64,000 nt of DNA from an uncultured bacterium (GCA_964439935.1 CAYTPW010000007.1:33932-97931), one strand, 5' to 3'. Shown: positions 1 to 42,606, numbered from the stretch's first letter. Notes: generated by a model not told the origin, from the sequence alone. Made by a program: numbers and translations.

Positions 1-12
1 CATAGTTAACTA

Positions 13-1125: not shown

Positions 1126-1147
1126 GGGAGGGAGAATGCTATGCCAG

Positions 1148-1999: not shown

Positions 2000-2073
2000 A
2001 GATGATTAATCCAGTTTCTACTTGCTAAAAATTAGTCAACAATTTAGCGCTGCAACACCCTGCGTACTGCAAC

Positions 2074-3051
2074 TTAATTATCCAGGATTTGATCCATGAC
2101 CCAGTTGGTTCGGGCAGCGGTTTCACCGGTACTGGGGCATCTTCCACGGCCATGCAATTGATCGACTATCGTTTGAATCAGTGGTCCCTGAATCGTTGCC
2201 GGATTAGATAACTCCAATAATTCAGTTCGCGAATTACTGGTAAGAGAGACTGGATCATTGCCAAAGGTAGCGAAGCTTATCGTACCGCTTGAGCCAACCA
2301 GAATAGTCTGATCAAATTTAGTACCGGCGTTGAAATTCCAGATGCCAGTGCCATGAACTCCGGTTATAAAATAATATGAGCTATTGACCAAATCAGCGAC
2401 GGTGTAAAGCCCGGCCTGGTTGATGCAGCGACCGCTGGCCTCAGTAATTTGCCCTAAGAAAAACTGAAGTATATCTATTGTATGGGGTGCCAGGTCTTCA
2501 AAATAACCACCCGGTGCGTGTTCCGGATTCAGGCGCCAGGTAACCGGTTTCAAGCTATCTTCTGCTTTTGGTGGTCGATTGTAAATAGTGTTCACACTGC
2601 GGATTGTACCAATCCGGCCATCATCCAGAAGTTGTTTTATTTTAAGAAAACGGGGTAGAGCACGACGATAATAAGCTATAAATAGTGGAAGTTTATGCTT
2701 TTTATAAGCAGCATTTATTTCCATGCATTCGGCATAATTCATACCCATTGGTTTCTCAATATAAGCTGGTTTTCCGGCATCGGCCACCGCCAGAGCATAT
2801 TCCCGGTGATAGCGGGGTGGAGTGGCAATATAGATTGCGTCAATCCCTGTGTCATTTATCAGGTTTCCGGCATTTTCATACCATTTATCAACACCATGCC
2901 GGTTGGCAAAATCCGCCGCAAGATCGCCATTCCGGCGCATTACCGCTACCAGCTTTGAACCGCAAGCCTGTTGAAACGCAGGTCCGCTTTTAACCTCGCA
3001 GACATCCCCGCAACCGATTATTCCCCAACGGATGACTTTAGAAGAAGTCAT
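2074..3051 (-). CDS. Gfo/Idh/MocA family oxidoreductase
   Basis: 325 aa. The N-terminal Rossmann motif is IRWGIIGCGDV, followed by the EKP motif (YIEKPM) typical of the family. Confidence 0.75.
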   Translation of the reverse strand: MTSSKVIRWGIIGCGDVCEVKSGPAFQQACGSKLVAVMRRNGDLAADFANRHGVDKWYENAGNLINDTGIDAIYIATPPRYHREYALAVADAGKPAYIEKPMGMNYAECMEINAAYKKHKLPLFIAYYRRALPRFLKIKQLLDDGRIGTIRSVNTIYNRPPKAEDSLKPVTWRLNPEHAPGGYFEDLAPHTIDILQFFLGQITEASGRCINQAGLYTVADLVNSSYYFITGVHGTGIWNFNAGTKFDQTILVGSSGTISFATFGNDPVSLTSNSRTELLELSNPATIQGPLIQTIVDQLHGRGRCPSTGETAARTNWVMDQILDN

Positions 3052-3142
3052 TTCTTAATTCCAAAAATTAACCTGAAGTCACTTTTAAAAAGCACAGCTT
3101 CGATTATATTGAGGAAATTTTGCGAGGATAATTTCATTATCA

Positions 3143-4573
3143 TCAACCTTTAATTACAATCAGTGGTACCAGTCGAGCAACTTTTTTCGATAATCCGGCT
3201 TTATCGGTAGCTTCCACTACAGCAGTAACATCCTTGTAAGCACCGGGTGCTTCCTCTGCAACTCCCCGATAAGTAGCGGAACGAATTTCAATTCCAGAAC
3301 GGGCCAGTGCCTGAATGACCTGCTTACCGCGCCAGAGTTTTTTCGCTTTCATCCGGCTCATTGTCCGGCCGGCGCCATGGCAGGCGGATGAAAAAGCTTC
3401 GTATTTGCTGGAATCAGTACCGGCAAGAATATAAGAAGCGGTTCCCATCGTACCGCCAATCAGTACTGGCTGACCAAACGGACGCAGATCATTGGGCAGG
3501 TCAGGGTGGCCGGGACTAAACGCCCGGGTTGCTCCTTTTCGGTGGACATAGACTGTTTTTCCTTTTCCATCGATCGTGTGCTGTTCTTTTTTACAGGTAT
3601 TATGGGAAACATCATATAGCAGTTTTAATTCAGCTTTTGGTAATACCCGATCAAAGATTTGCCTGACCAGCTGGGTGAGAATCTGACGATTGGCCATTGC
3701 ACAATTAATGCCCCCATTCATGGCACCGAAATATTCCCGACCCAGTTTTGATTCTATCGGTGCGCAGGCCAGCTCCCGATCCGGTAACTTAATTCCGTAA
3801 CGGGGTGCTTCACTGACCATTCGCTTCAGAAATTCAGTACCAATTTGATGCCCTAATCCCCTTGATCCACAGTGAATGCTGATTTTTATATCACCAACCT
3901 TTATTCCGAAACCGGTCGCTAAAGTGGCGTCATAAATATCCGTCACCTGCTGGATCTCCAAATAATGGTTGCCTGATCCCAGTGTTCCCATTTGATTCTG
4001 CTGGCGCTTTTTGGCATGATTGGAAATGCTGGCTGGATCGGCTCCTGTCATCTGGCCGTTTTCTTCGATTCTTCCCAGATCAGCATGGGATCCGTAATTT
4101 TGTTCCACTGCCCAACGAGCACCACCGGACAGCATTGCATTCATCTGTTTGTCGTCCAGATGAATTTTCCCCTCGCTGCCAACCCCAGCAGGAATATCCC
4201 GGGCTAGTTGATCAGCTAATTCTTTTTTTATAGGATGGATGTCTTCAATAGTCAGACCAGTATGCATTGTGCGGACACCACAGGCGATATCAAAACCGAC
4301 ACCACCAGCTGAGATCACACCGTTAGCCAGGGGATCGAATGCAGCAACACCTCCGATCGGGAATCCGTAGCCCCAATGGGCATCCGGCATGGCATAAGCA
4401 GCTGTTTGAATACCCGGCAGTTTAGTAACATTGACCAGTTGCTGATAAACTTTATCGTCCATCGCCCGGATCAAACGGTCATCACTATAAATTATTCCAG
4501 TATTTATCTGGCCGGGCTTCGGCTTTAACTGCCATTTATAATCATTGAGCCGGTCCAGCTGTTTCAAGTTCAT
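3143..4573 (-). CDS. rtcB: RNA-splicing ligase RtcB
   Basis: 476 aa with full-length RtcB-like organisation. Motifs include GSRGLGHQ, SGNHYLE and the nucleophile-histidine motif SACHGAGR. Confidence 0.9.
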   Translation of the reverse strand: MNLKQLDRLNDYKWQLKPKPGQINTGIIYSDDRLIRAMDDKVYQQLVNVTKLPGIQTAAYAMPDAHWGYGFPIGGVAAFDPLANGVISAGGVGFDIACGVRTMHTGLTIEDIHPIKKELADQLARDIPAGVGSEGKIHLDDKQMNAMLSGGARWAVEQNYGSHADLGRIEENGQMTGADPASISNHAKKRQQNQMGTLGSGNHYLEIQQVTDIYDATLATGFGIKVGDIKISIHCGSRGLGHQIGTEFLKRMVSEAPRYGIKLPDRELACAPIESKLGREYFGAMNGGINCAMANRQILTQLVRQIFDRVLPKAELKLLYDVSHNTCKKEQHTIDGKGKTVYVHRKGATRAFSPGHPDLPNDLRPFGQPVLIGGTMGTASYILAGTDSSKYEAFSSACHGAGRTMSRMKAKKLWRGKQVIQALARSGIEIRSATYRGVAEEAPGAYKDVTAVVEATDKAGLSKKVARLVPLIVIKG

Positions 4574-4625
4574 AGCTAGAAATATAATCAGGAAATCGGC
4601 TGTGTGAAATAAGAATCAGCTTTTG

Positions 4626-5075
4626 CTATACATCGACAACACATTGAGCCACCCAGGATTGTGGATCCTGGGAACTGACTTTCAATTCAGTATATGTGGC
4701 AGCTTTTACCTCGACCACTGGCTGATGAACTGTCCGATTTAGCGGCTCGCCCCAGATAATTCCTGATAAACTGGTGCCGGTTATTTCAACTTTGAAGCTG
4801 CCGAATAAATAATTATCGGTTGCCATGTGATAGATCAGTTCGTTTAGCCAGTCCACCAGCAATGCTTCCAGATCATCAGCTTCACAGTATATTTTGTATT
4901 CCTTTTCAGGTCTGATCACGCTGGTGCTGATTACCGCTGTCAAGGCTTTGGCAGCTTGTTCAAAGGCGGCATCAAGAGTTGGACCGAAACCCCGTACACC
5001 AATATCCGCCTGGTGGTGAAAATGTTCCCAACCAACTGGATCAGCGGATATCAAACTACTTTGCCAACGATCCAA
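4626..5075 (-). CDS. archease (RtcB activator family)
   Basis: 149 aa. The N-terminal HQADIGVRGFG matches the archease H-x-AD-x-G motif, and a C-terminal VKAATY motif is present. It lies 52 nt upstream of rtcB on the same strand. The start is uncertain: the ATG at 5075 overlaps the upstream SDR by 25 nt, and an alternative TTG sits at 5054. Confidence 0.75.
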   Translation of the reverse strand: MDRWQSSLISADPVGWEHFHHQADIGVRGFGPTLDAAFEQAAKALTAVISTSVIRPEKEYKIYCEADDLEALLVDWLNELIYHMATDNYLFGSFKVEITGTSLSGIIWGEPLNRTVHQPVVEVKAATYTELKVSSQDPQSWVAQCVVDV

Positions 5076-5788
5076 TCTGGGATTATCTTAATCAGTGGGA
5101 CCAGAATGCGCCACTGCCAGGGAAACAGGTAGTTTTTCTTTCCTGCAGTAATCGCCTGTGCGATTTTAATTACGGCTGGTTCAACATCCATTAGAAAAGG
5201 CATGATCGTTTTGCGAGTGGAGGTCATTGGTGTACGTATGAACCCGGGATAGATAGTAGTAACCTTGACATTGTGAGGAGACAGCGAAAACCGCCAACCA
5301 TTGGCCATTATGCGTACGGCGGCTTTTGAGGCTGAATACCCGCCGCGTCGGGGTAATGCACGAACGCCGGCGATTGAGCTGAGCAAGACCACTTGACCAT
5401 GTTTTTGTTCGATAAATTGGTTCACAAAGGGAAATACTGTATTGGTAATACCCAGCAGATTGATCTGTAATATTTCATTGATGCGGGTTGGGTCACCGGA
5501 TTCCAGATGATCGTCCCCGCTTTTTCCAGCATTGGCGATCAACAGGTCAATACCGGAATTATTGGCAATGAAATCATCAGCGGCGTTTTGGCAAGCTTGC
5601 TGATCAGTGACATCGAGCTCGTAAATGCATACATCACTACCAAGTTGCCGACATTTATCCGCCACTATTTCCAAGCGTTCCTTCCGACGGGCAGCCAATC
5701 CAAGGCAGGCTTTCCCGCGTGCATAATGATAAGCCAGGTTTTCGCCAATCCCACTGCTGGCACCGGTGATGAATATCCTCTGGGGCAT
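5051..5788 (-). CDS. SDR family oxidoreductase
   Basis: 245 aa. It carries the TGASSGIG cofactor motif, NAG, and the catalytic YSASK (Y-x3-K). Confidence 0.8.
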   Translation of the reverse strand: MPQRIFITGASSGIGENLAYHYARGKACLGLAARRKERLEIVADKCRQLGSDVCIYELDVTDQQACQNAADDFIANNSGIDLLIANAGKSGDDHLESGDPTRINEILQINLLGITNTVFPFVNQFIEQKHGQVVLLSSIAGVRALPRRGGYSASKAAVRIMANGWRFSLSPHNVKVTTIYPGFIRTPMTSTRKTIMPFLMDVEPAVIKIAQAITAGKKNYLFPWQWRILVPLIKIIPDWIVGKVV

Positions 5789-6579
5789 TAGAGCAATCCT
5801 TTCACGGCACCGCCATCATGCACTATCGATTGACCGGTAATAAAACCAGCTTGATTGGAACTGATGAATGCTGCCAGGGCACCCAGTTCCTCCGGCATTC
5901 CCAGACGACCGAGTGGTGTATCCGTACCTAGTTTTTCCCAGGCCTCCTCCATCGTACAGCCATCATCTTCCATAATGTCATTGACTAGATGCTCTAGTCG
6001 ATTGGTGCGATGGGGACCGGGAAGCAGGCAATTGACTGTTATCCCATGTGAAGCCAGATCATTAGCGATTGTTTTAGCGTAGGCCGTCAATGCCGAGCGC
6101 GCAGCATTAGATAAAATCAGACTGTCGATCGGCTGTTTAACCGCCATAGATGTGATGAATATTAGCCGTCCCCAGCCATTGGCTTTCATTGCTTCCACTA
6201 CTTGGCTCACCGATGAAACAGCTGAATGAAAATTGGTCTGAAAAGCCTGATTCCAGTCGTCTTTAGTAAATTCATTGAACTGGCCACGAGGTGGACCTCC
6301 GGCATTGCAAACCAATATATCGGGATCGCCGAATTCTTTGCGGCACTGGCGGAACAAGGTCTGGAGTTGCAGATGTTTGGAAACATCGCATTGCACGGGG
6401 AGAACCGGATTTCCGGTGGTTGCATTGATTTGTGTAGCGGCATTATTCAACTCGCTGGCAGTACGCGCACAGATGACAACTTTGGCGCCCTCTGCACTTA
6501 AAGCCAATGCCACACTGTAACCTAATCCCTTGGAAGCTGCTTGAACAACAGCGATTTTATCTTTAAGTCCCAGATTCAT
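5788..6579 (-). CDS. SDR family oxidoreductase (FabG-like)
   Basis: 263 aa with a Rossmann N-terminus (VVQAASKGLG) plus CNAGG and PGP motifs. Its stop overlaps the next SDR start by 1 nt (TAATG). Confidence 0.75.
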   Translation of the reverse strand: MNLGLKDKIAVVQAASKGLGYSVALALSAEGAKVVICARTASELNNAATQINATTGNPVLPVQCDVSKHLQLQTLFRQCRKEFGDPDILVCNAGGPPRGQFNEFTKDDWNQAFQTNFHSAVSSVSQVVEAMKANGWGRLIFITSMAVKQPIDSLILSNAARSALTAYAKTIANDLASHGITVNCLLPGPHRTNRLEHLVNDIMEDDGCTMEEAWEKLGTDTPLGRLGMPEELGALAAFISSNQAGFITGQSIVHDGGAVKGLL

Positions 6580-6806
6580 AAATCCTCACAATAGATTTAC
6601 CGGTTTTAGGATAATTACCTATAGCTAAGATAAGCGCAAATTAACATTTAAGAAAACATGTTGGAGAATATTTCTTAATTGATACTGAATATTGTTATTA
6701 GGAAATTGAATAGCTAAATTATATTTTATAGTTAGGTATTACTCATTTGGATATTATTTTAATTTTGAGTCTTCAAAATCAAACTGTTTATTGAAAGGGG
6801 TAAGTT

Positions 6807-8063
6807 ATGCGCATCAAGACATATGTAATATTGCTAATTGGTTTGTTGGCCTTGTCTTGCCAGGATGTAATCACCGTACATATCGAAAAAGATCCCGGAA
6901 CACTGGTTGGCTATGTTTTACCTGCAGACATAAATGCTGTTGTCGAACTACATCAGGGCAAGCTGGTTGTTGAAACTGATGTTGATACAGATGGATATTT
7001 TATATTCGCTGATCTGGATCCTGGTAGGTATCGTTTATTCTGCATTGCGGTCGGATATACTCAATATGAAAGAAGTGTTACTATATCCGATGGAGAGGTC
7101 TACGATACAGGTGAAATCAATCTTATTAATATGCCATACCCGCTTTATTATATATCACCGGCAGATGGTGCTGTAAACGTTGTAAATAGCTATCATAGTT
7201 TAGTAATAAAATTACAATTCAGAGAAAGCATGATTTTTTCCAGTATAAATTCGGCAGTATCGATATATCCAGATGTAGTTGATTTCGAGATCAGAGATCG
7301 CTATTCATCCGGTAGATATAAAGATCAATATCCCAACGGTAGATATTTTGAATGTAGTGGAGTTTTTCTTTTCGCTACACAGTATACGGTCACAATCGAT
7401 TCCTCCGCTTCAACTATTGACGGTGAACGAATTGACAATGAGTTTCATTTTTCATTTACCACAGAAGAGTTTCAAGTAGGATTTAATTTTTATCCCTATA
7501 CTTATTACGGTGATAATTACATCCGACTGTATTTTAATACCCAAATTAATCCAATTTCAGTCTTGGATTATCTGGTCATTAATCCGGAAATACCATATAA
7601 ATTAGATAATTATTATTTAATAGATAATTACATCAGAATAACCCCACAAATTTCGTGGATTCCCGACACAACAATCACGTTTACAATTAAGCAAGGTTTG
7701 CCTGATATCTTTAGTGATACACTGGCATATGATACCACATTCTCGATTACAACACCACCACTGGCCATCCGCGCGACAGACCCTTATCCAGGAATGAACT
7801 TTGTCCCAGTTGAAAGCTATGTAATTATTAAAATGAATAATGTCCTTGATGAGATTACGATCGAGTCGGCCATTGCGATCTCACCGGAAACAGAATTCAC
7901 GCTATCTACGGATCGCTATGAAGGCACCACCGAATTCATAATTGCTCCCGATTCACTACTAATCGGAGAAACGACCTATACAGTTATTCTTAACACCAGT
8001 TTACGTGATTATTACGGCGGTCGGTTGAAAGAACCCTACACATTGTCCTTCACTACTGAATAG
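6807..8063 (+). CDS. secreted lipoprotein with carboxypeptidase-regulatory-like and Ig-like beta-sandwich domains
   Basis: It has a lipoprotein signal peptide (LLALSC) and an RBS (AAAGGGG) upstream. The segment DGYFIFADLDPGRYRLF is typical of the CarboxypepD_reg fold. The rest is repetitive and beta-rich. No catalytic motif is seen. Confidence 0.5.
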   Translation: MRIKTYVILLIGLLALSCQDVITVHIEKDPGTLVGYVLPADINAVVELHQGKLVVETDVDTDGYFIFADLDPGRYRLFCIAVGYTQYERSVTISDGEVYDTGEINLINMPYPLYYISPADGAVNVVNSYHSLVIKLQFRESMIFSSINSAVSIYPDVVDFEIRDRYSSGRYKDQYPNGRYFECSGVFLFATQYTVTIDSSASTIDGERIDNEFHFSFTTEEFQVGFNFYPYTYYGDNYIRLYFNTQINPISVLDYLVINPEIPYKLDNYYLIDNYIRITPQISWIPDTTITFTIKQGLPDIFSDTLAYDTTFSITTPPLAIRATDPYPGMNFVPVESYVIIKMNNVLDEITIESAIAISPETEFTLSTDRYEGTTEFIIAPDSLLIGETTYTVILNTSLRDYYGGRLKEPYTLSFTTE

Positions 8064-8584
8064 GGGCGTGATTCTTATAGCTAACAGAGCAAATATTCCT
8101 GATTAATCATACCTGTTCAAATTCTCTATAAACTAGGATTGAAGCGGGGTCCCTACCGGTACATAACCGTCTCAAAATTTTTCTATCTTTCTATTTTAAA
8201 CTGGCAATGGAATGTCATGACAAATCCCTTCATTTCATCAAAATAATTTTAGATTGATTAATATATTTAAAATCATCGTCTTGGGTATCCTTCGACATCG
8301 CGCAGGACTGGTTTGTGTTTCACCTGTCATTGGTGAATTCAACGGCTATGTTGAAACCTATTTCATCTCCTTTGTCATTGGGGAGATTTTATGAGGGGTT
8401 TAATAATGACCTTTTAATACAAACATATTATTTATGCTAGGGTAATAATTGAATTCGGACTTGGAAAAATTAATTCCATCATAAAATTCTGTGCTATTTT
8501 CAGATTTGGAGTTGCATATTACTGTTGCGACATTTAAGTCTGGTAACTACTTTGATACAATCATTTAGCCAGGGAGATAGAAAA

Positions 8585-10201
8585 ATGAAAAAGGGCGTAA
8601 TAGCATTTAGGATTGTATTTGTTGTGCTATTTGTAATGTCTTACACGGTCAGGATTTCGGCCATGACCGGTGATATTCTTAAATCATTTGCTGCTCCATC
8701 TGCTTGTCCAACTGGCTTAGCCTGGAATAATGGATTGCTCTGGATGGCTGACTTGAAAACGGATACGATTTACGCAATCAGTGCTGATGATGGTAGCGTG
8801 ATCCATAGCCTAGCCGCACCGACTTTCCGTCCTCTGGGTCTGGCTTTCGATGGTGAAGGATTGTGGGTTGTCTGTGGTGAGGAAGAACTTATTTATCGGA
8901 TACTGCCCGAAACCGGATTAGTAACCAACACTTTCGAATCTCCGGTGAGCAAGCCGACCGGACTTGCCTGGGATGGTAAGTATCTCTGGGTGGCCAGCCG
9001 TTCCGCGGATGAAATTCACCAGATCAGCCCTAAGGATGGAACGACAATTTCATCTTTTCCTGCACCGGCCGGATATCCGCAGGGATTAGCGTTCGATGGC
9101 AAGTACCTCTGGGTGGCCGACCGGATTACCAACCGGATATATATGGTCAATCCCAGAGGCGGCGAAGTTATCCTGTTATTCGACGCACCGGCACCCTACG
9201 CGGATGGACTGGCCTGGGATGGACAACAGCTATGGAATGTTGATTTCCAGTCTGATTCACTCTATTGCATCGTGATTGGTGGTGATGGTCTTTTCCATCG
9301 CCAGGAGGAAAAGATTCAACAGGTGGAATTTACCCATGAGGTACGCAATTACGGTCCGGGAACGATGAAAAGCCTGGATATCTACCTCGCAATTCCGCAT
9401 TCGCTCCCGAATCAGGATATAATCGACGAACCGGTCTTCAGCTCAGAACCGACGGATTTTCTGATTGATCAGTGGGGACAAAAAGTAGCTCATTACCATT
9501 TCTCTGGAAAAGAAGCCGGCTCCGTATCAAGTGTCAGTATGACTGTTCAGGCCAAGATGTACGATACACGTTGGTTCATCTTCCCTGAAAAATGTGGTAA
9601 TCTGAAGCAAATACCAAAAACTATCCGATCTGAGTATCTGGTTAATGATGAGAAATTCGATATGGAAAATCCTGTTATTAAAAAAGCCATTGAGGCCTGT
9701 GTTGGTGATGAGCAGAATCCCTATTGGATAATGCGGAATATATTCAGTCATATTATTGACAACATGTATTATGAATTGGCGGGTGGTTGGAATATCGCAC
9801 CAGCCGTACTGGAGCGGGGCAATGGTTCGTGCTCGGAATATACTTTTGTATTTATTTCCATGTGTCGGGCGGCAGGAATTCCGGCCCGTTATGCCGGATC
9901 GATAGCCATTCGCGGTGACGACGCCAGCCTGGATGATGTTTTCCATCGTTGGGCGGAAGTCTACCTGCCTGGTTATGGCTGGATACCTGTTGATCCATCA
10001 CGGGGAGATAAACCTACCCCGGAAGAACAATCTGACGCAATTGGACATCTTAGTAACAGTTGTCTGATTACAACAATTGGCGGGGGTGGATCGGATTATC
10101 TGGATTGGACCTATAATTCCGCTGAACAATGGACTACGATGGGAAAATGTAAAATTTATACTGAACATATCGGTGAATGGAATCCAATAACATCTGATTG
10201 A
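8585..10201 (+). CDS. secreted beta-propeller / transglutaminase-like cysteine protease fusion protein
   Basis: The ATG at 8585 has a GGGAGA RBS, whereas the track start at 8525 is TTG. A signal peptide is present. Five about-45-aa repeats have the form P-x-GLA(W/F)DG-x-x-LWV. The C-terminal transglutaminase core shows Cys (GNGSCSEY), His (FHRWAEVY) and Asp (WIPVDPS). Confidence 0.7.
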   Translation: MKKGVIAFRIVFVVLFVMSYTVRISAMTGDILKSFAAPSACPTGLAWNNGLLWMADLKTDTIYAISADDGSVIHSLAAPTFRPLGLAFDGEGLWVVCGEEELIYRILPETGLVTNTFESPVSKPTGLAWDGKYLWVASRSADEIHQISPKDGTTISSFPAPAGYPQGLAFDGKYLWVADRITNRIYMVNPRGGEVILLFDAPAPYADGLAWDGQQLWNVDFQSDSLYCIVIGGDGLFHRQEEKIQQVEFTHEVRNYGPGTMKSLDIYLAIPHSLPNQDIIDEPVFSSEPTDFLIDQWGQKVAHYHFSGKEAGSVSSVSMTVQAKMYDTRWFIFPEKCGNLKQIPKTIRSEYLVNDEKFDMENPVIKKAIEACVGDEQNPYWIMRNIFSHIIDNMYYELAGGWNIAPAVLERGNGSCSEYTFVFISMCRAAGIPARYAGSIAIRGDDASLDDVFHRWAEVYLPGYGWIPVDPSRGDKPTPEEQSDAIGHLSNSCLITTIGGGGSDYLDWTYNSAEQWTTMGKCKIYTEHIGEWNPITSD

Positions 10202-10689
10202 AAAATATATAGTGTTGGGTCTACATGATAAATGAACGGTTCGAGACAGGATTTAGAATGACATCTCATGTTTATTCTTTGTCAATTTTGTTTAATAGTT
10301 GTTAGCACTAACCTTTCGAAAGTTTCGAACTTGCGCAATGTTTTAGAACTAAATAATCCCCAAAATTGAATTATTATTTCAACCTCAATATCATTTGCGA
10401 TGGAAAATTTATAACCTGGTATGGTGACAGAAGTCAAATGGGTGCGGTACAAAAACCTAGAACTAAGAACCTGGAACCTAAAATTTATCTACACTTTTTC
10501 CACTCACTCCCGTCCCCTATCTTCCTAATGAGTGGTCCCAAATCATCACGAACTACAGGTAAATCATATAGTATCTCAAATGTTTTGGCCAGTACTGATC
10601 TGGTGATTGAAAGCACTGGAATACTAATCAGGTAATGATGAAATTCAGGGTGGAAAATTTTAATAATCAATAATAAAAGTGGGTAAAAA

Positions 10690-12576
10690 ATGAAACGTAT
10701 GCGCCTAATGATTAGTTTAGTTTTAATTGCGATTTTAGTCTTATCAGGATTGATTGCTAAACCGGAGACATTGATTCGTTCCGAGATTCCGGATGAGTAT
10801 AAATGGGATCTAACTGATGTTTATAAAAGTTGGGATGAATGGGAAGCCGAGTTTGCTGAATTAGAAACGAAGATGGACGAATATGCAGCCTACAAAGGTC
10901 GTCTCTCTGAAAGCTCAGCTGTTCTTCTGGAAACATTCAAACTGGGTGATGAGTTAGGATTGCTGGCAGATCGGCTCTACAGTTTTGTGTCTATGAGCCT
11001 TCATACTGATACCCGTGATAATGATATCTCCGCCAAACTGCAGCGAGTGCAGATCATGTTTTCGAAATTCGGAACAGCCACAGCCTGGTTCGATCCGGAA
11101 ATGTTAAACATTCCCTGGGATACGATGGAGCAATGGCTGGAAATCGAAGAAGGATTGGTTATTTACCGTCATGGTATTGTCAATCTATATCGGCAACAAG
11201 CCCATGTTTTGGATGAACGTGGTGAAGAATTATTGTCCTATTTCTCCAGTTTTGCGCGTACCCCACGCTCGATCCATTCTGAATTATCAACCTCCGATAT
11301 CGATTTCCCCGATGTAACACTCGGTGATGGTGACACAATTACCGTTACCCCCGGACAATATGGTCTGGTTTTAAGTACCAACCGTAACCAGGCAGACCGG
11401 GAAATGGTATTTTTAGCCCGGAACGGACTTTATAATGAAAATATCAATACCTATGCTGCTACCTACAACGGCATTTGTCAGCGAGATTGGGCATTCGCCC
11501 AGGCGCGCAAATATAATTCAACCCTGGGAGCTAGCCTTGAAGGTGATAATGTGCCGGTCGATGTATACGAAAACCTGGTCAAAATGGTCGGTGAAGGTAC
11601 CGAGCCACTAAAACGGTATCACCAGGCAAGGAAAGAAGCTTTGAAACTGGATGAGTATCATCTCTATGACAGTTCCATACCGGTGGTTGATTTTGACAAG
11701 ACATATGAATATGACAGTGTTACAGAAATTATTATTAATTCCGTGGCACCATTGGGTAAAGATTATCAAGCTAAACTGAAGACAGCCTTTGCCGGTGGTT
11801 GGGTAGATGTCTATGAAAATGAGGGTAAACGTGGCGGTGCATACTCCGGCGGTGTTTACGGGGTTCATCCTTATATGCTTCTGAATTACAGCGATACGAT
11901 AGATGATGTATTTACTCTGGCGCATGAGATGGGACATACAATTCATACGATGCAGGCAAATGAGAATCAGCCATTTGCCACAACGCGGTATACATTGTTT
12001 GTTGCTGAAGTCTCTTCAACTATGGCCGAAGCCCTGCTTTTGGAGTATATGTTAGCACAGGCTAAGGACCCAAAGGAGAAAATTACTTTGTTATCACACG
12101 CAATTGATAATATCGCCAGTACCTTTTATACTCAGGTGATGTTTGCCGATTTTGAATTGCAGGCTCACCGTCTGGCCGAGCAGGGTCAACCGATTACTGC
12201 TGAGGTGCTCAATGGTATCTATGCTGGCCTGCTGGACCAATATTACGGTGAGGGTGTCTATCACGACGAATTGTATGATATCACCTGGGCAAGAATCCCG
12301 CATTTTTATTTCTATCCCTATTATGTCTACCAATATGCAACTTGCTTTGCTTCCTCGGCACAGTTGTTTAAAGAAATCAACACCGGTAAAAAGCGGGACC
12401 GGAAACAGGCAGTCGAGCAGTACCTGGATTTATTGAAAGCCGGTGGTAATGATTACCCCATGGAACAATTAAAGGAAGCTGGGGTTGATCTGACTCAACC
12501 GGACACTTTCCAAGCTGTGATTGATCACCTTGATGAACTGGTGACGAAATTTGAACAGGAGCTTGCTAAATTATAA
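10690..12576 (+). CDS. pepF: M3B family oligoendopeptidase (PepF-like), secreted
   Basis: 628 aa with an N-terminal signal/TM segment. The zinc motif is HEMGH, and overall length is PepF-like. Confidence 0.75.
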   Translation: MKRMRLMISLVLIAILVLSGLIAKPETLIRSEIPDEYKWDLTDVYKSWDEWEAEFAELETKMDEYAAYKGRLSESSAVLLETFKLGDELGLLADRLYSFVSMSLHTDTRDNDISAKLQRVQIMFSKFGTATAWFDPEMLNIPWDTMEQWLEIEEGLVIYRHGIVNLYRQQAHVLDERGEELLSYFSSFARTPRSIHSELSTSDIDFPDVTLGDGDTITVTPGQYGLVLSTNRNQADREMVFLARNGLYNENINTYAATYNGICQRDWAFAQARKYNSTLGASLEGDNVPVDVYENLVKMVGEGTEPLKRYHQARKEALKLDEYHLYDSSIPVVDFDKTYEYDSVTEIIINSVAPLGKDYQAKLKTAFAGGWVDVYENEGKRGGAYSGGVYGVHPYMLLNYSDTIDDVFTLAHEMGHTIHTMQANENQPFATTRYTLFVAEVSSTMAEALLLEYMLAQAKDPKEKITLLSHAIDNIASTFYTQVMFADFELQAHRLAEQGQPITAEVLNGIYAGLLDQYYGEGVYHDELYDITWARIPHFYFYPYYVYQYATCFASSAQLFKEINTGKKRDRKQAVEQYLDLLKAGGNDYPMEQLKEAGVDLTQPDTFQAVIDHLDELVTKFEQELAKL

Positions 12577-36237: not shown

Positions 36238-36678
36238 CTAGTCTTCGTGTTCGGTATCATGATCATCTTCATGATGGAGGTCGTGATCTTGGTCGTGATC
36301 GCCCGTATGGTCGCCGTCGTGATCACCGGAATGGTCGCTGTCATGGTCACTGGAATGGTCACCACCGTGATCACCGGTGTGTGCTCCGCTGTGGTCATCG
36401 GCATCCCGCTCCTGCTCGATTTCTAGGACGATCCCTTCAGCAGTAAGTTCTATCTCGTATTCGAAATCACCTTTTATCCCCTCCAGTTCGTATGTAATTC
36501 CGTCATTTGATTCCTCCATTTCAGCTTCGGTGAACTGAACACCAGGTAAAGCTTCCTGGGCGGCCTTCAGTACTGCCCCAGGAATTTCCGAAATGGGAAT
36601 ATCCCTTTCATCACCCGAAATCCCAACAGAAACCAACAACAAAATTAAGATACCGATTAAATAATTAGTATTTCGCAT
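36238..36678 (-). CDS. secreted PepSY-like domain protein with C-terminal His/Asp repeat tail
   Basis: The ATG at 36678 has a GGAGG RBS 7 nt upstream. It has a signal peptide and a PepSY-like core (ITYELEGIKGDFEYEIELTAEG). The last 55 aa contain 14 His, mostly in an x-x-D-H four-residue repeat. Confidence 0.6.
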   Translation of the reverse strand: MRNTNYLIGILILLLVSVGISGDERDIPISEIPGAVLKAAQEALPGVQFTEAEMEESNDGITYELEGIKGDFEYEIELTAEGIVLEIEQERDADDHSGAHTGDHGGDHSSDHDSDHSGDHDGDHTGDHDQDHDLHHEDDHDTEHED

Positions 36679-36836
36679 GTCTGTTCCTCCCATTGTTATA
36701 AAAATGTCGACAGTAATTTAATCCATAAAAACCAATAATATTAATCCATTAATACGATGAATTTTAATGCCCATAACTTGTAAAACAAGATTGCGTTATT
36801 TTAAGATTTAGATTCCTCCAGCATTAATTCTATGGG

Positions 36837-37343
36837 TCAGTTAGCCCAATGTAACAACTCATCAGTACCCGGCGGATCATTCCAGTCAATTGGTCCCCGC
36901 TCAAAGCGGTATATCAATCTTGGTAATACGATCTGATTCCAGGCCTGGTTAAAATAATCGAAAGCTTCGTCCCATTCACTACCTGAACCCCATCCATCAT
37001 GATAGAGAGTCACTTTCGTACCGGATTCATCCGGAAAAAGGCGAATTACCACATGTGTATGCTGCTTTCGTACACTGGGAAGATGGGGAGGGGCGTTCCA
37101 AGTAAATGAAAACATCTTCATAGGCTGGATCGCCAATATACGCACTCCTTCACCACCGCGCTGACCTGATGGTGCATCGGGATTAAAATAAATTTCATAA
37201 TTCCCACCCGGGCGAAAATCAATGTTGCAGCCCGGAGCAAAAAAACCGATGATCCCATCCTCAGTCGTCCATGCTTTCCAGACATCGTCGAGGTTTGCTT
37301 TGACCTGAATTTCGCAGATTATAGCTTTTTCATGTTCTTTCAT
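36837..37343 (-). CDS. SRPBCC / AHSA1-like domain protein
   Basis: 168 aa with the pattern W.A.T....WF....-FSFTW typical of Aha1-like SRPBCC proteins. Confidence 0.65.
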   Translation of the reverse strand: MKEHEKAIICEIQVKANLDDVWKAWTTEDGIIGFFAPGCNIDFRPGGNYEIYFNPDAPSGQRGGEGVRILAIQPMKMFSFTWNAPPHLPSVRKQHTHVVIRLFPDESGTKVTLYHDGWGSGSEWDEAFDYFNQAWNQIVLPRLIYRFERGPIDWNDPPGTDELLHWAN

Positions 37344-37373: not shown

Positions 37374-37500
37374 GTCTAATGCTTAAATCACCGGCGCAAA
37401 CTTGACCGGTTATATGCTGTTTGAATAACAATTCCAATTTTACAATCCCATGTTCTCTAATTAGCCTACCACTCGAAGTCATGATGTAGTGTGGTTACGA
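37374..37500 (-). repeat. attC-like element, degenerate ends (TCGTAAC ... ATTAGAC on the minus strand)
   Basis: This 127-nt element aligns end to end with the 132-nt element at 41514-41645. Shared blocks are GGAATTGTTA, GGTCAAGTT and CGGTGA.TTAA. It sits in the same place relative to the ORFs: after a stop and before the next start. Confidence 0.4.
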
Positions 37501-37534
37501 GCATTTTACAATCGCTACATTGAAATTCAGATAT

Positions 37535-38461
37535 TCATATTTTTTTGGCAAGTACTATAATATGGCTGTTTAATTTTATAAAAAAATTGATTCTTTTTAT
37601 ATAAGCAAACAGTTTTGATTTATTTGCTTGCATTATGGAAGGTGGGTAGCCCCAATTAAACGCATATGATTTCAAAATTTTGAATCCTGCCTTTTCAAAT
37701 AAAGTAGTTATTTCGGATAATGAATAAAATCTAATATGGGGTTGTTTGGTAGTCCCTTCATTGAGTGAATATTTATTAACCAGGTCAAAATCTAAATTGC
37801 TTGCACCTTTAACCAATTTTAACAAACCCAGCAAATAGGCTACATTGTTTGTTTCTAACACACAAATTCCATCTTTTTTGGTTATTTTATTTAAGAAGTC
37901 AAATAAAAGAAATGGAGTGTGTAAATGCTCAATGACTTCCATGCAGGTAACTATATCAAATTCTAACTGGATATCGTCGGATTTGGTTGAGCTCCGAATT
38001 GAGGACTCACAATAATCCAAATTATTATAAATGAATTCAATTTTCTCATTTTGCATAAAATTGATAAATGGTAGTTTGGTTCGTATACAATTGATAGCAG
38101 GATTAGCGTCTGCATGATCTTTGTATTTAGCTAATTCATCATCTTCACATACAAGGCCTTGGCCAAACAATTTTATTTTTTCTTCTTCGAGAATAAGCTG
38201 TAATAGTCGAAGAAAAGTTCCCGGGAATGCACCGATATCCATGATCCCGGAATCGCTGACGATATATGGTTCGATGAGTTTAAATACTTCAAAATATAAT
38301 TCAATACCAGAATAGGCATAAGATCGCCGGTGTGCATAAACTCTTTCATCACAAAAAAGTTCATACATTGAGGGAGTATATTTATTGTAAACAAGCCGTT
38401 TGAATTCGTGGAAAGTCATATCATTCAATTTCTGCATCTCACGTTTGAGTTCACATGTCAA
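37535..38461 (-). CDS. class I SAM-dependent methyltransferase
   Basis: Motif I-like is IMDIGAFPGTF, and the post-II/III segment is FDIVTCMEVIEHL. It is AT-rich. The start is uncertain: TTG at 38461, with internal ATG candidates. Confidence 0.6.
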   Translation of the reverse strand: MTCELKREMQKLNDMTFHEFKRLVYNKYTPSMYELFCDERVYAHRRSYAYSGIELYFEVFKLIEPYIVSDSGIMDIGAFPGTFLRLLQLILEEEKIKLFGQGLVCEDDELAKYKDHADANPAINCIRTKLPFINFMQNEKIEFIYNNLDYCESSIRSSTKSDDIQLEFDIVTCMEVIEHLHTPFLLFDFLNKITKKDGICVLETNNVAYLLGLLKLVKGASNLDFDLVNKYSLNEGTTKQPHIRFYSLSEITTLFEKAGFKILKSYAFNWGYPPSIMQANKSKLFAYIKRINFFIKLNSHIIVLAKKI

Positions 38462-38544
38462 TTATTGCAGCGTGTTTATGTCTGGTTCGGTTAATTGTTA
38501 ATCCTGAAAGAAAAGAATTCGCCAAAAGTCTGGATTCAATATTC

Positions 38545-39345
38545 CTAATTTTTCTTAAAAATAAAAAATGAAATATGATTTGTTAGCTTCCTAAATGCAA
38601 GATCAATTGACTTTTTTACCACTTTTACCAAAAACAATTTGCTGTCGTAGCACTTTTGCAATGGACGATGAATGATCTTTATTTCATCCATTAATCCTTT
38701 TACTCCATCCGCACGTTTATGCGCGATGAATTCAAATCCACTATCAGTAAAACTATTAATAATGCTTTGATGTGAAAATGCATATTGATAAAAATTGTCT
38801 TTAGTCAACTCAATATCTTCGAGACCTGCATACATCCCCAATGCTGCCTTTGCTTTTCTTAATATAGACATGGAAGGAACAGTTAAAAACAAATAGCCAC
38901 CTTTTTTTATCACTCTGTACATTTCACTTAATATTGCATCATAGCCATCAATAAAGTGCTCTATTACACCAAGTGACCAGTATCCATCAAAAAATTGATC
39001 ACCAAACTCTAATTTTCTCACATCACCGGTGGAAACTTTCAATTCAGGCACAGCCTGGTTCACTTTAGATACAGTGTCTGCCGCAAAATCAACACCATAA
39101 ACATTGTATCCATTACTATGTAAAGTATAAACATTTTGCCCTTTACCACACCCACCTTCAAGAATTGTTGAACCTTTTGGTAAGCATTTGCTCGTATGAT
39201 ACAGAACAAACCTGTTTTTTATCTTTATATCTTCTGCAAAATCGTCACGTGAATAAAACGACCAATGAGAATCCCAAAAATCACTATCAGCCTTTTTATT
39301 CATAAACACCAGACAACGATTTTCAGGATCATAATACTTCTGCAT
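38545..39345 (-). CDS. class I SAM-dependent methyltransferase
   Basis: Motif I is ILEGGCGKGQN, followed by YGVDF and GVIEHF. The ATG at 39345 is preceded by TAGGATAGTGAAT. Confidence 0.7.
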   Translation of the reverse strand: MQKYYDPENRCLVFMNKKADSDFWDSHWSFYSRDDFAEDIKIKNRFVLYHTSKCLPKGSTILEGGCGKGQNVYTLHSNGYNVYGVDFAADTVSKVNQAVPELKVSTGDVRKLEFGDQFFDGYWSLGVIEHFIDGYDAILSEMYRVIKKGGYLFLTVPSMSILRKAKAALGMYAGLEDIELTKDNFYQYAFSHQSIINSFTDSGFEFIAHKRADGVKGLMDEIKIIHRPLQKCYDSKLFLVKVVKKSIDLAFRKLTNHISFFIFKKN

Positions 39346-39368
39346 ATTCACTATCCTATCGGCTTAAA

Positions 39369-40253
39369 CTATTTTTTCTTAATATACTGCTCTCTTTGAT
39401 TATATGGTACTTGTACTGATTCAGAAATTTTACTTTCTATATTTTTAAGATAATTCACCATGAAATGTTCTTTAAAGCTTTCGTGGGAAATATTTTTCCA
39501 AAAACTACCAGCAGACTTCCTTGTAGCATCATGCTTTTCAAGATAAACAAAATATTTTTTATCTAATAATATGACTTCTTCACCAAGGTGCTCATAAATA
39601 CCATGAATTGAATCTAATAGCGTTATCGGTGGTAAGAGTGGAACAATGTCATTTTCATCGACAACTCGTGTAATTGGTAGATAATTATAAGCCTGTACAC
39701 CTTTATTATTTGTTACTTTAGGTTGTCCAAAATTAATGGATGGTTCTAAGCTGAATCCATCTTCATGTAAATACATCATAATTAAAGTTGCTATAGCAGC
39801 TCCTAATGAATGGCCAGTAACCGAAGTTTTATATTCTTTGTTAAGATAAGGATGTACATCTGTATAAACTTTTGTAGCATCGCGATCAAATCCACGATGC
39901 GTATAAATTTTAAGTTTTTTGTTTTTTGATTGCCAGTATTCTGCATCTTCTTTAATATTTTTTAAATTTGAGGTTCCACGAATACTTAATACTTGTAATT
40001 CCTTACTTGGAAAGACTTCCAAAAAATATTGAACATCAATATCTTTTATTTCTGCAACTCGTACTGTTTGAGTAAACTTTTCTTTTATAAAGCCTTGGCT
40101 TTTATATGCGGCATTTGCTCTTTCAGCAAACCATTGCACTTTTTCAAAATCAATCTTTTTACTAGTCGCTATATCCAAGCCATTTTTAGAAATCCAAATA
40201 CAATTTGTAATTAATAACATTAATAGTATTAGAACTATATTAATTGCTTTCAT
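39369..40253 (-). CDS. class 3 lipase family protein (secreted)
   Basis: It has a signal peptide, the nucleophile elbow GHSLGAA, and a later D (VVDENDIVP). The ATG at 40253 is preceded by TAGGTTGAAT. Confidence 0.7.
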   Translation of the reverse strand: MKAINIVLILLMLLITNCIWISKNGLDIATSKKIDFEKVQWFAERANAAYKSQGFIKEKFTQTVRVAEIKDIDVQYFLEVFPSKELQVLSIRGTSNLKNIKEDAEYWQSKNKKLKIYTHRGFDRDATKVYTDVHPYLNKEYKTSVTGHSLGAAIATLIMMYLHEDGFSLEPSINFGQPKVTNNKGVQAYNYLPITRVVDENDIVPLLPPITLLDSIHGIYEHLGEEVILLDKKYFVYLEKHDATRKSAGSFWKNISHESFKEHFMVNYLKNIESKISESVQVPYNQREQYIKKK

Positions 40254-40373
40254 ATTCAACCTATTATTTTATCTATAAAAGCTCTTTGCCTAATTAATTA
40301 AAATTATGATATTGAAATATCATTAACAAATATGAAAAATATTTATCCAAAATAAAGATAAATATCAAATATA

Positions 40374-40498
40374 GTATAACGCACTAGGCTTGAGCTGCTT
40401 CTCGAAACGGACTTGCTTGGTAAATTCACTGTATCCTGCCACATCATTTTCGTAAACCAATCCCTTGTGTGTGAGTCAGCTCTAAGCCTTTGTTAGAT
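40374..40498 (-). repeat. attC-like recombination site (125 nt)
   Basis: Read on the minus strand it is ATCTAAC-aaa-GGCTTAGAGCTG ... CAGCTCAAGCC-tagtgc-GTTATAC. The ends are an inverse core RYYYAAC and a near-core GTTRRRY with one mismatch. The inner stem is 11 bp with one bulged base. The element begins 12 nt after the BNR ORF stop. Confidence 0.55.
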
Positions 40499-40510
40499 GC
40501 ACCAGCAACT

Positions 40511-41515
40511 TCAATGAGTATAAATACCACGATAAAGACCGTCATAGTAAGTACCAAGATAAACTCGATTTTCAGAATCAATTGCTAACGATCGGACTGC
40601 TATTGGGATTTTTAAACCTGAATTAACCTGATCCCAATTATGCCCATTGTCATTTGATACAAAAACACCATCACCATAGAAAATTCCTGCAAAAAGATCT
40701 CCATATTCATTGGATGCAAGCTCCTCAATGTTTTTTCCAACAAGACCTGCTTTTTCCCAGGTATTTCCGTTGTCAACTGATCTGTAAACACCATTAGTGG
40801 TTCCTGCGAATATGACACCCGAAAGACTTGTCGTAAGAGTTTTGATACTTAGCGTATCCAACCCTGCATGCTCCCAGGTTGCTTGATCGTGACTGTACCG
40901 GAAAACACCAACAGGAATACTATTCACAGCCACAGAGCCATAATATATGTTTCCCAGGGTATCATATGTAATGGCATAAAAGGATAGACTGGTCGGCGGA
41001 AGACCGGCACTAATATTCTCCCACGACTCAGCGTTGTTATGTGAGGTGAACGCTAGATAGTTATCAATCCAACCTCCACAAAATAGAACATCTTCATCAT
41101 TGATTGACATAACCTGTGGAGAACCATAAGGGGTACTTCGCGTTTCCCAAGTTGAGCCATTGTCGATTGACAAGAATGTGTTAGCCGAATGTACGATAAT
41201 TTCATCTGATGAATTAACTATAATTGATTTAACCCAGCCTGTGTTCGACAATATTTCAGACCAACTCTCCCCATCATCGGATGATTTGTAAATAGCGGAA
41301 TTGTCAGTACTGGTTCCAATGAAAATATCGGAATCAGAGTTAAAGCCTATCGCAGTAACTCGTATACCCTCAAATTCAATATGCTCCCACATAAGCGATT
41401 CATCAGGATTAGCATTATCAATTGTGTCCTCACAACTGAAAATGAATATCAACAAAAAGAGGAAAAAGGAAACTGGTTTAATTTTTATCATCAGATTCCT
41501 GGTTAATGGTTGCAT
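40511..41515 (-). CDS. BNR/Sortilin-type (Ycf48-like) beta-propeller protein, secreted
   Basis: It has five S-x-D-x-G-x-(T/S)-W-like motifs: SSDDGESW, SIDNGSTW, NNAESW, SVDNGNTW and SNDNGHNW. A signal peptide is present. The start may instead be the internal ATG (MIKIKP). Confidence 0.65.
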   Translation of the reverse strand: MQPLTRNLMIKIKPVSFFLFLLIFIFSCEDTIDNANPDESLMWEHIEFEGIRVTAIGFNSDSDIFIGTSTDNSAIYKSSDDGESWSEILSNTGWVKSIIVNSSDEIIVHSANTFLSIDNGSTWETRSTPYGSPQVMSINDEDVLFCGGWIDNYLAFTSHNNAESWENISAGLPPTSLSFYAITYDTLGNIYYGSVAVNSIPVGVFRYSHDQATWEHAGLDTLSIKTLTTSLSGVIFAGTTNGVYRSVDNGNTWEKAGLVGKNIEELASNEYGDLFAGIFYGDGVFVSNDNGHNWDQVNSGLKIPIAVRSLAIDSENRVYLGTYYDGLYRGIYTH

Positions 41516-41645
41516 CTAACGGTTTAACTCACCGAGCGTAACTTGACCTGACTTTATTCGGTTGATTAACAATTCCTGGTTCAAAATCCTCATTTTCTCA
41601 AATTGTCCAGCCCGCTATTTGCGTCCGGTGCGGTGTTTGTTAGGT
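41514..41645 (-). repeat. attC-like recombination site (132 nt)
   Basis: Read on the minus strand it is ACCTAAC-aaaca-CCGCACCGGACGC ... CGCTCGGTGAG-ttaaacc-GTTAGAT. The ends are canonical RYYYAAC and GTTRRRY with imperfect inner inverted repeats. It begins 9 nt after the SIMPL-like stop, and its last two bases are the AT of the next ORF's ATG. Confidence 0.6.
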
Positions 41646-41654
41646 GAATAATTG

Positions 41655-42320
41655 TTAATCGACTAATTGGTATTTAATTTTTAATGAAACTTTAATTTCA
41701 ACAGAATCTTGAATTCCCAATTTTCTTTCTGATGCAAGCATATATCTATCAAGATCCGTTTTGATATTCGCTGGTCCGACATTTATCATTTTGCCTATAT
41801 TTTTCCCAAATGAATTACTAATCTTTTCTGCTCTATCATTAGCGTTCCTAATGGCCAATTGATAGGCATTTAATTTATGTTCTTCAATTTTGGAAATATT
41901 AGGCTCTGTCTTAAGGATTGAACCCTGATTATTTGAAAAAATCAAATATATATCTTCAACAACAGAAATATCGGTCACTGTTACACTTACTATTTGTTTG
42001 GAATAAAAAACCTGATCGCTACAGTTTAGTTCAGATGTGACTTGCCTGGGTGAGAATTCAACACTCTCAGTATATTTTGAATGCTTTTCCAAATCCGCAA
42101 TCAAATTATTGTGCGAATCCTTATAGGCTAAATCAATGTCTTCTAGATTCTCACTTCTATGATGTAGAATGCCAATCATAATTATTTTTTCGGCTGGAAT
42201 TTTAAGTGATGCTTCACCATATATCTCAATAGTAGATATTTCCAATTCATCACTTGCACTCAAAACAACAATTAATGAACAAAGTAATAGTTTTACCCAC
42301 ATAGTATTTCTTATAATCAT
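41655..42320 (-). CDS. SIMPL (DUF541)-like periplasmic protein
   Basis: 221 aa with a signal peptide. The central AYQLAIRNANDRAEKISNSFGKNIG segment resembles SIMPL/DUF541. The RBS AGGTG lies inside the core-site repeat. Confidence 0.45.
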   Translation of the reverse strand: MIIRNTMWVKLLLCSLIVVLSASDELEISTIEIYGEASLKIPAEKIIMIGILHHRSENLEDIDLAYKDSHNNLIADLEKHSKYTESVEFSPRQVTSELNCSDQVFYSKQIVSVTVTDISVVEDIYLIFSNNQGSILKTEPNISKIEEHKLNAYQLAIRNANDRAEKISNSFGKNIGKMINVGPANIKTDLDRYMLASERKLGIQDSVEIKVSLKIKYQLVD

Positions 42321-42606
42321 AATTATTCACCTAACTAGTAATTGAACGAGTTGTATAATAACTTATGGCCGCGAAAAGCTCTATGAAAATAATTCATGCA
42401 ACTACCCCTATATCTCTATATTATTCAGATATTAAGCTTAATAATCCTGGAATCCAAATGGAATTTTATTATAGTCGGATAATAAACTGAATTCGAATAT
42501 CATTCCGGAGCTCTGGGTCATAAATCATCTATTGGACTCTTAACATGATGGCCCCGTTTCCTTTTCTTTCCTTTCCCCGTTTCCTCACAATTCCGTAGCT
42601 TCAACC

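Follow-up and report, generated by a model that had tools for sequence, protein, structure and literature searches.

An integrase-less gene-cassette array in a Marinimicrobia genome, very probably left over from a sedentary chromosomal integron

The 64-kb window considered here (the whole stretch of DNA analysed, 64,000 nucleotides from an uncultured bacterium) carries, between the genes of an HD protein and RmuC, a run of gene cassettes with attC recombination sites and no integrase gene. Clusters of attC sites lacking an integron integrase (CALINs) are known, and loss of the integrase gene, intI, is one of their proposed origins (Cury et al., 2016; PMC4889954). We regard it as highly probable that the region is such a CALIN, a cassette array belonging to a sedentary chromosomal integron that has degenerated, its integrase gene lost save for the last 12 codons. 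According to a search with the RmuC protein, which returned metagenome-assembled genomes (MAGs) of Marinimicrobia with best identities of 72–79%, the host belongs to this phylum (SAR406, Fidelibacterota). Marinimicrobia are abundant uncultured bacteria of the ocean.

In approximately 40 relatives, the gene order M17 peptidase–HD–RmuC–hypothetical protein is uninterrupted, and the gap between HD and rmuC is often 10–50 nt long. In the window, 6.4 kb of co-oriented, AT-rich cargo separates HD from rmuC, the HD gene itself lying on the opposite strand beyond the last co-oriented open reading frames (ORFs) of the array. None of the seven inserted genes is carried by any of these approximately 40 relatives, and the cargo is foreign to the locus. 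As the relatives keep M17, HD and RmuC contiguous without the inserted genes, the array occupies a variable spot in an otherwise conserved gene cluster. An earlier model-generated account of the same DNA, here called the sequence-only reading, had held that a gene order strictly conserved with identical junctions in distant relatives would speak against cassettes; the relatives display no such conservation, HD being either directly beside rmuC or separated from it by different cargo. The AT-rich block described there is also evident, with the G+C content of 0.29–0.41 within 37.5–42.5 kb and 0.43–0.50 in the flanks.

The features of the locus are collected in Table 1. Read on the minus strand, the motif GTTAGGT (42335–42329) is followed, after 8 nt, by the ATG at 42320 of the SIMPL ORF; ACCTAAC (41645–41639) comes 9 nt past the stop codon of this ORF and opens the first attC site (site A), which closes with GTTAGAT (41520–41514). 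Similarly, ATCTAAC (40498–40492) lies 12 nt past the stop codon of the BNR ORF, and site B closes with GTTATAC (40380–40374). On re-reading the minus strand, all five motifs were found at exactly the positions that the sequence-only reading had assigned to them. The ends of sites A and B fit the RYYYAAC/GTTRRRY consensus, whereas those of site C (TCGTAAC/ATTAGAC) do not. The lengths of the three sites (132, 125, and 128 nt for A, B, and C, respectively) fall, as had been claimed for the proposed 125–132 nt, inside the attC range of approximately 55–141 nt. The starts of sites A and B are separated by 1147 nt, site C follows 3.0 kb further, and all are on the minus strand. The region has the properties by which CALINs are delimited, namely two or more attC sites, spaced at less than 4 kb on a single strand, and no adjoining intI gene.

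Table 1. Features of the cassette array and its surroundings, in minus-strand order. R1 and R2 are the covariance models described in the text.
Feature	Coordinates	Strand	Evidence and remarks
Integron-integrase 3'-end relic, 12 codons, RGHHVKSPIDDL followed by a stop	42518..42556	-	Same direction as cassettes; homology to the L004 relic
Conserved non-coding leader, 182 nt, attI-like junction at its end	42336..42517	-	About 85% identical to L004, alignable to L003
Core site GTTAGGT at the array head (G/TT crossover point)	42329..42335	-	Direct reading; last six bases belong to cassette 1; same 7-mer heads the L004 and L099 arrays; exact complement ACCTAAC follows the SIMPL ORF
Cassette 1 ORF, SIMPL/DUF541, 221 aa, signal peptide	41655..42320	-	Pfam PF04402, E=3e-8
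attC site A, 132 nt, ACCTAAC ... GTTAGAT	41514..41645	-	R1 20.2 bits, R2 58.6 bits; homologues in L096, L100
Cassette 2 ORF, BNR/Sortilin-type beta-propeller lipoprotein, 326 aa	40511..41491	-	Pfam PF15902, E=6e-11; independent gene call
attC site B, 125 nt, ATCTAAC ... GTTATAC	40374..40498	-	R1 17.1 bits, R2 24.9 bits; 14-bp stem with two bulged T
Cassette 3, class-3 lipase lipoprotein	40253-39369	-	Pfam PF01764, E=3e-20
Cassette 3, S-adenosylmethionine (SAM) methyltransferase	39345-38545	-	Pfam PF08241, E=3e-18
Possible decayed short attC, GATTAAC AATTA ACC G AACCAG A C ... CATGTG AAC TCAAAC GTGAGAT	38436..38503	-	By eye only, between methyltransferases 1 and 2; low confidence
Cassette 4 ORF, second SAM methyltransferase, 300 aa	37535..38437	-	Pfam PF13489, E=8e-15; gene call
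attC site C, decayed, 128 nt, TCGTAAC ... ATTAGAC	37374..37501	-	Homologous to site A; R2 20.5 bits; last recognisable site of the array
AHSA1/SRPBCC protein	37343-36837	-	Pfam PF08327, E=8e-19
Secreted His/Asp-repeat protein, 146 aa	36678-36238	-	No Pfam match

The attC sites were evaluated with two covariance models. The first, R1, was built only from 10 class-1 sites of clinical plasmids (aadA2, aadB, aadA16, aadA5, a gcu cassette, blaVIM-2, aacA4, dfrA5, aac(6')-29a, and arr-3), taken from cassette arrays beside intI1 on twelve plasmids, with the textbook structure of an R box, 5-nt spacer, 3-bp L box, extrahelical base, and 6-bp stem. MAFFT misaligned the dfrA27 site and one gcu cassette, which were excluded from training; dfrA27 then served as a held-out positive. 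A default-filter scan of 1.2 Mb of relatives had the appearance of a clean negative control but is invalid, as these filters drop even the window's own matches, and filters-off scans alone were used. On both strands of the window (128 kb), R1 yielded only two matches with E<0.1, sites A (E=0.005) and B (E=0.038), each at full length and with the proposed ends, while the next-best score in the window was 11.5 bits. Since the held-out dfrA27 site scores 21.9 bits, approximately 20 bits is a typical R1 score for a genuine but unfamiliar attC. The maximum R1 score in 94.8 kb of the closest relatives was 11.6 bits, and site C was missed by this model.

The second model, R2, was derived from seven attC sites of L100, L099, and L096, all from contigs other than the window and five of them beside an intact intI. 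It recovers all three sites of the window, with E=2e-14 for site A, E=1e-4 for site B, and E=0.0025 for site C. Thus, both models, surrogates for a curated one, score sites A and B, R1 doing so with exactly the ends proposed in the sequence-only reading, and the attC sites are real. No Rfam 15 family matches at the sites under gathering and E-value thresholds, and a scan for intrinsic terminators (G+C-rich hairpins with a run of T after them) was negative at all three.

The predicted bottom-strand folds differ between the sites. Site B has full R and L boxes with extrahelical bases, its stem consisting of segments of 6, 6, and 2 bp. A bulged T on the 3' (L'') arm separates each segment from the next, which places the two bulges 6 bp apart, the first of them 8 nt from R'', with the spacing of aadA2 (on the top strand, ATCTAAC-AAAGG-CTT[A]GAGCTG[A]CT in site B and GTCTAAC-AATTC-GTT[C]AAGCCG[A]CC in aadA2). 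The site B stem described earlier as having 11 bp and one bulge is real, but comprises 14 bp and two single-base bulges on the bottom-strand 3' arm. In site A the R box forms, and the L stem contains mismatches, so that the expected fold is present in part. Site C has ATTAGAC as R' (A for G) and CATCAT in the 5' arm, where its relatives have CACCGG, and the pairing is lost; the left-boundary element of the sequence-only reading (37501–37374) is thus a homologous attC site, but a decayed one. An R' core starting with A is found not only here (37374–37380) but also in L096 (3459–3465, ATTAGAA), in a site with an otherwise perfect canonical stem, so that the A may reflect a variant that is tolerated, not decay. 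The candidate at 38503–38436 has a layout like the class-1 consensus with arms that are no longer paired, and it was reported by neither R1 nor R2. There is no attC between the lipase and methyltransferase genes of cassette 3.

In cassettes 1 and 2, the core in front of the ORF and the inverse core behind it are exact complements (GTTAGGT/ACCTAAC and GTTAGAT/ATCTAAC, respectively), which the sequence-only reading had presented as the decisive point. Taken alone, this rule is at chance level: with ORF positions disregarded, nine core/complement pairs are observed against 6.8 ± 3.3 in shuffled windows, and chained pairs are seen in 86 out of 300 shuffles. The rule becomes informative when tied to ORF ends. 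Two ORFs (SIMPL and BNR) have a core no more than 45 nt away from each of their ends, with 0.027 expected among all window ORFs (100 aa or longer, either strand), and the boundaries of the cassettes are those proposed. The rule also holds for both complete cassettes of L096 (GTTAGGG/CCCTAAC and GTTAGCC/GGCTAAC) and in L099 (GTTAGGT/ACCTAAC). The complementarity of the seven bases before the ORF and the seven behind it would follow from circularisation at G/TT (the slash marking the crossover point), with the integrase cutting within AAC of the attC bottom strand.

Sites A and C are homologous to each other (nhmmer E=5e-5), and no further copies of this element are present in the window or in 80 related loci (1.2 Mb in total), so that within these sequences it is not scattered through non-cassette contexts, as a repeat family was expected to be. 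A pattern derived from sites A and C matched five metagenome contigs, two of which, L096 and L098, contain true homologues, in or beside arrays; the matches in L094, L095, and L097 lie inside coding sequence and were rejected as chance. L096, an array of 4.4 kb, contains three attC sites (128–132 nt), two of them A-type, and its positions 971–1098 are approximately 85% identical to site A, while L098 holds a decayed half-site. Another A-type attC, homologous to site A, is found at 7921–8049 of L100 (GCA_022564745.1; JADFKW010000016.1, positions 1–10981), in an array adjoining an intact intI. This is a complete Marinimicrobia integron, with a run of minus-strand cassettes, at least 10 kb long, after intI, and R1 detects four attC sites in it (16.6–27.1 bits). 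Its cargo includes BrnT/CopG and HicA/HicB toxin–antitoxin pairs, Abi_alpha, a Kunitz-domain protein, a redoxin, and a 936-aa BNR/T9SS protein.

In agreement with the earlier statement that the window holds no tyrosine recombinase gene, tblastn searches of the 64 kb with IntI1 (a query verified by 100% identity to plasmid intI1 genes) and with two Marinimicrobia proteins, IntI-L002 and IntI-L029, found no integrase gene. The 271-nt spacer between the array and rmuC, previously taken as merely non-coding, nevertheless carries a 12-codon intI relic and a conserved leader. On the cassette strand, the counterpart of the relic in L004 encodes KATMIYTHVVRTRGHHVRSPIDDL and that in L003 encodes KTTMIHTHVIRTRRRHIKSPVDDL, each ending with a stop codon. 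The L004 peptide aligns, stop for stop, to the last 25 residues of 120 integron integrases, with 56–64% identity among the best matches listed. Compared to L004, the window relic has an additional 37-nt deletion that removes the TMIYTHV codons. The relic reads on the cassette strand, and the lost integrase was therefore transcribed toward the cassettes.

Sister lineages have an intact integrase at the same position. In L002 and its full-length copy L099, a 339-aa IntI, 46% identical to IntI1 and containing the IntI-specific insert, ends 66 nt before rmuC. This intI is directed away from a cassette on the minus strand, in front of which is GTTAGGT and behind which are ACCTAAC and an attC of 18.3 bits. 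The expectation that intI and attI would lie to the right of 42335 is thus borne out by the intact gene of L099/L002 and by the relic of the window, but the orientation of the relic is opposite to that implied. A functional-type intI with the IntI-specific domain is found in L099/L002, L029, and L100 (the L100 and L002 genes being 81% identical) and not in the window, which therefore does not hold a complete integron. In L029, L015, and L039, intI or its relics lie upstream of M17. Directly downstream of the intI 3' end in L039 (70–1000), and also in L029 (660–1600), there are tandem repeats of approximately 190 nt consisting of hairpins that resemble repetitive extragenic palindromic (REP) elements, followed by an ORF resembling a REP-associated tyrosine transposase (...FAYCVMSNHVHIVLKP...).

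The leader separates the relic from the array head. Over 117 nt, the spacer is also 71% identical to L003, whose homologous stretch is upstream of HD, not rmuC. The similarity of the window, L004, and L003 stops at ...ACTA/GTTA, beyond which the first cassettes or genes are unrelated, the cores after the leader being GTTAGGT in the window and L004 and GTTATAT in L003. An attI junction is expected to look so when integrons with different first cassettes are compared, and an attI-like junction is present here. The leader probably also holds the promoters of rmuC and the cassettes; promoter-like matches in it are no commoner than in shuffles. A weak R2 match (minus strand, 42353–42474; 14.3 bits, E=0.15) overlaps the leader and may be due to chance in AT-rich DNA or represent a trace of attC-derived sequence.

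A comparison of L004 and L099 bears on how the platform (leader and array, with or without integrase) has changed. The L099 RmuC is 95.7% identical to that of L004 and 78.6% identical to that of the window. The L004 and L099 flanks are 87–89% identical at the DNA level, and as the two diverge completely from 26 nt upstream of the rmuC start codon, two different, unrelated platforms share one position, with an intact divergent intI in one and a relic of a co-oriented intI in the other. The swap point corresponds to position 1964 of L099, 8416 of L004, and 42581 of the window. Across lineages, the platform is found at three different spots in the M17–HD–rmuC cluster. The arrays behind the leader in L004 and L003 contain no attC detectable by the models, and decayed sites in the L004 array were seen by eye. 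In L003, there are two separate runs of minus-strand ORFs, at 1062–5544 (from M17 to HD, behind the leader) and at 6565–9838 (from HD to rmuC), and neither has a detectable attC.

Taking together the attC model scores, the ORF-tied core rule, the foreign cargo, and the intI relic, we find the proposal of an integron-type cassette array without integrase well supported. Each cassette would have entered as a circle by attC × attI recombination at G/TT, catalysed by the integron integrase, whose cut would fall between A and C of 5'-AAC-3' in the bottom strand of the folded attC. In minus-strand order, the array consists of the intI relic, the 182-nt leader ending at G/TTAGGT, the SIMPL gene with site A, the BNR lipoprotein gene with site B, the lipase and methyltransferase genes, and the second methyltransferase gene with the decayed site C. 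Cassette expression presumably starts in the leader. Sites A and B would still be excisable and reinsertable only with an integrase acting in trans, supplied by another integron of the genome or by incoming DNA, and the older, distal end of the array appears to be decaying into ordinary fixed genes.

Several observations weigh against this interpretation. The window relic has only 12 codons, too short for statistics, and is recognisable solely via the longer relics of L004 and L003. A search for a full-length integrase of the relic type, made with a composite probe of 46 aa, gave no candidate. Comparison of the leader with the attI region of L099 gave no significant similarity (p of approximately 0.06 near the core and 0.5 overall). 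R1 and R2 are surrogates and not the curated IntegronFinder model, and the R1 E-values are only those given above. Cassettes 3 and 4 break the complement rule, and the L-box pairing of site A is weaker than in its L096 and L100 relatives. Single-strand folding energies of sites A (z = +0.35) and C (z = +0.49) are no better than those of shuffles; the whole-site minimum-energy folding (z from -0.96 to +0.71 for the three sites on both strands) is uninformative given a variable loop of approximately 85 nt.

The unremarkable folding energies of sites A and C, along with the frequency with which the loose complement rule arises by chance, might suggest that the elements are ordinary intergenic palindromes, namely REP elements, miniature inverted-repeat transposable elements (MITEs), or terminators, whose GTT and AAC ends are fortuitous. 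We consider this scarcely credible, as copies outside arrays are lacking from the window and from the 1.2 Mb of relatives, every homologue found sits in a cassette array, the sites have no T-run terminator, and models trained on unrelated true attC sites recover them with exact ends. It is also very improbable that there never was a platform here and that a trans-acting integrase inserted the cassettes at a secondary (attG-type) GTT site in the HD–rmuC spacer. Such insertion is a documented origin of CALINs (PMC4889954; bioRxiv 10.1101/2022.09.11.507474) and would agree with the absence of an integrase gene from the window, but it does not account for the integrase C-terminal relic 182 nt upstream of the core, for the intervening leader, whose conservation in three species extends as far as the core, or for the intact intI at the same position in a relative.

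A different possibility, to which we give some weight while thinking it unlikely, is that the platform works without an integrase of its own, the attI-like site of the leader receiving cassettes via an integrase encoded elsewhere, so that the locus would be a live satellite and not a fossil. The window and L004 have the same truncated-integrase junction and the same leader, yet unrelated first cassettes directly after the core; in L003, the leader is followed by a different core (GTTATAT) and other cargo; and nothing in the arrays of L004 and L003 is nearly as well preserved as sites A and B. The differences in first cassettes could also have arisen by other routes, as the leader and relic could have moved by homologous recombination, and head cassettes could have been lost by attC × attI deletion before the integrase died. 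Moreover, no integrase is known from this genome, within the 64 kb read, and the L004 and L003 arrays lie behind the same leader without a detectable attC. A broader scenario, which seems to us rather doubtful, holds that an integrase-less platform, comprising an attI-like leader and an array, persists in several Marinimicrobia species and captures cassettes in trans, and that in a sister lineage its place, down to the nucleotide (26 nt upstream of rmuC), has been taken by a complete integron whose integrase has the opposite orientation. If true, the locus would be a natural example of platform turnover and of attI sites served in trans.

The degenerate-integron interpretation, which we prefer, places the locus among elements of an already known kind, although it is well preserved here. 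The cargo shares with that of other CALINs its common orientation, its lack of resistance genes, and the prevalence of unknown or secreted functions. In 95% of surveyed CALINs there is no recognisable intI pseudogene within 10 kb (PMC4889954); unlike in most of these, the origin is readable here, as an intI relic and an attI-like leader remain. Marinimicrobia are outside the complete-genome set of that survey (PMC4889954), and our full-text literature search found no paper describing Marinimicrobia integrons, while NCBI annotation already names integron integrases in Marinimicrobia MAGs.

The chromosomal integrons of Treponema (the T. denticola type) are atypical in that intI is transcribed toward the cassettes (Wu et al., 2013; PMC3607928), and in T. 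phagedenis, which has lost intI, the syntenic locus still contains attC sites (PMC3607928). Both traits recur here, where the lost intI read toward the cassettes and attC sites have been kept without it, but the phylum is different, the attC sites (125–132 nt) form a sequence family of their own, and a Marinimicrobia sister lineage has a divergent intI at the same position. In archaeal integrons, attI is immediately downstream of intI (PMC9668308), and the attI-like junction here is likewise downstream of the intI relic. Most Xanthomonas genomes reportedly carry a sedentary chromosomal integron, of a type with a fixed locus and frequent decay of intI (bioRxiv 10.1101/2025.06.18.660453); as in Xanthomonas, the integron here is tied to a conserved chromosomal neighbourhood within the clade, but the platform is found at three spots of its cluster, depending on the lineage.

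Compared to class 1 attC sites such as those of aadA2 and aadB, the sites here share the RYYYAAC ... GTTRRRY ends, the 5-nt spacer, the 3-bp L box, the extrahelical base after the L box, the 6-bp stem, and the second extrahelical base within the conserved GAC. They differ in being twice as long (with a variable region of approximately 85 nt) and AT-rich, in having no homology outside the boxes, and, in the case of site B, in the first bottom-strand extrahelical base, which is T, not G.

Stages of decay are preserved side by side at this locus: the platform is intact in one lineage, is reduced in the window to a relic that keeps two good attC sites, and is a relic lacking detectable attC in two others. 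The locus provides a concrete series for how CALINs arise. It also offers a defined attC family and candidate integrases (P0001 and P0002) for asking whether cassettes stay mobile after local loss of the integrase. Beyond the decay series and the attC family, it is an ordinary member of a well-described class.

As for the cargo, signal or lipoprotein peptides, as read from the translations, start three of the proteins. The SIMPL protein of cassette 1 has a sole match, itself, in a collection of 5.8 billion proteins, and the BNR protein of cassette 2 is 25% identical to the 936-aa BNR cassette protein of the L100 integron. The sequence-only reading started the BNR ORF at the ATG overlapping GTTAGAT; the ATG at 41491, which gives a lipoprotein signal peptide (...FIFSC), is most likely the true start, and the independent gene call agrees. 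In cassette 3 (38545..40253), the lipase and methyltransferase genes are 17 nt apart. The cargo is indeed all co-oriented, but the very short leaders ascribed to it are not universal, that of the lipase gene being approximately 120 nt long.

Beyond site C, the genes for the AHSA1 and His/Asp-repeat proteins (36238..37343) have host-like G+C content, no homologue in the 80 related loci, and no attC match by R1 or R2. They may be old cassettes without a recognisable attC, and their membership in the array is uncertain. Five tandem 24-nt repeats at 36270–36404 encode the His/Asp-rich C-terminal repeat of the 146-aa protein (ORF 36238–36678).

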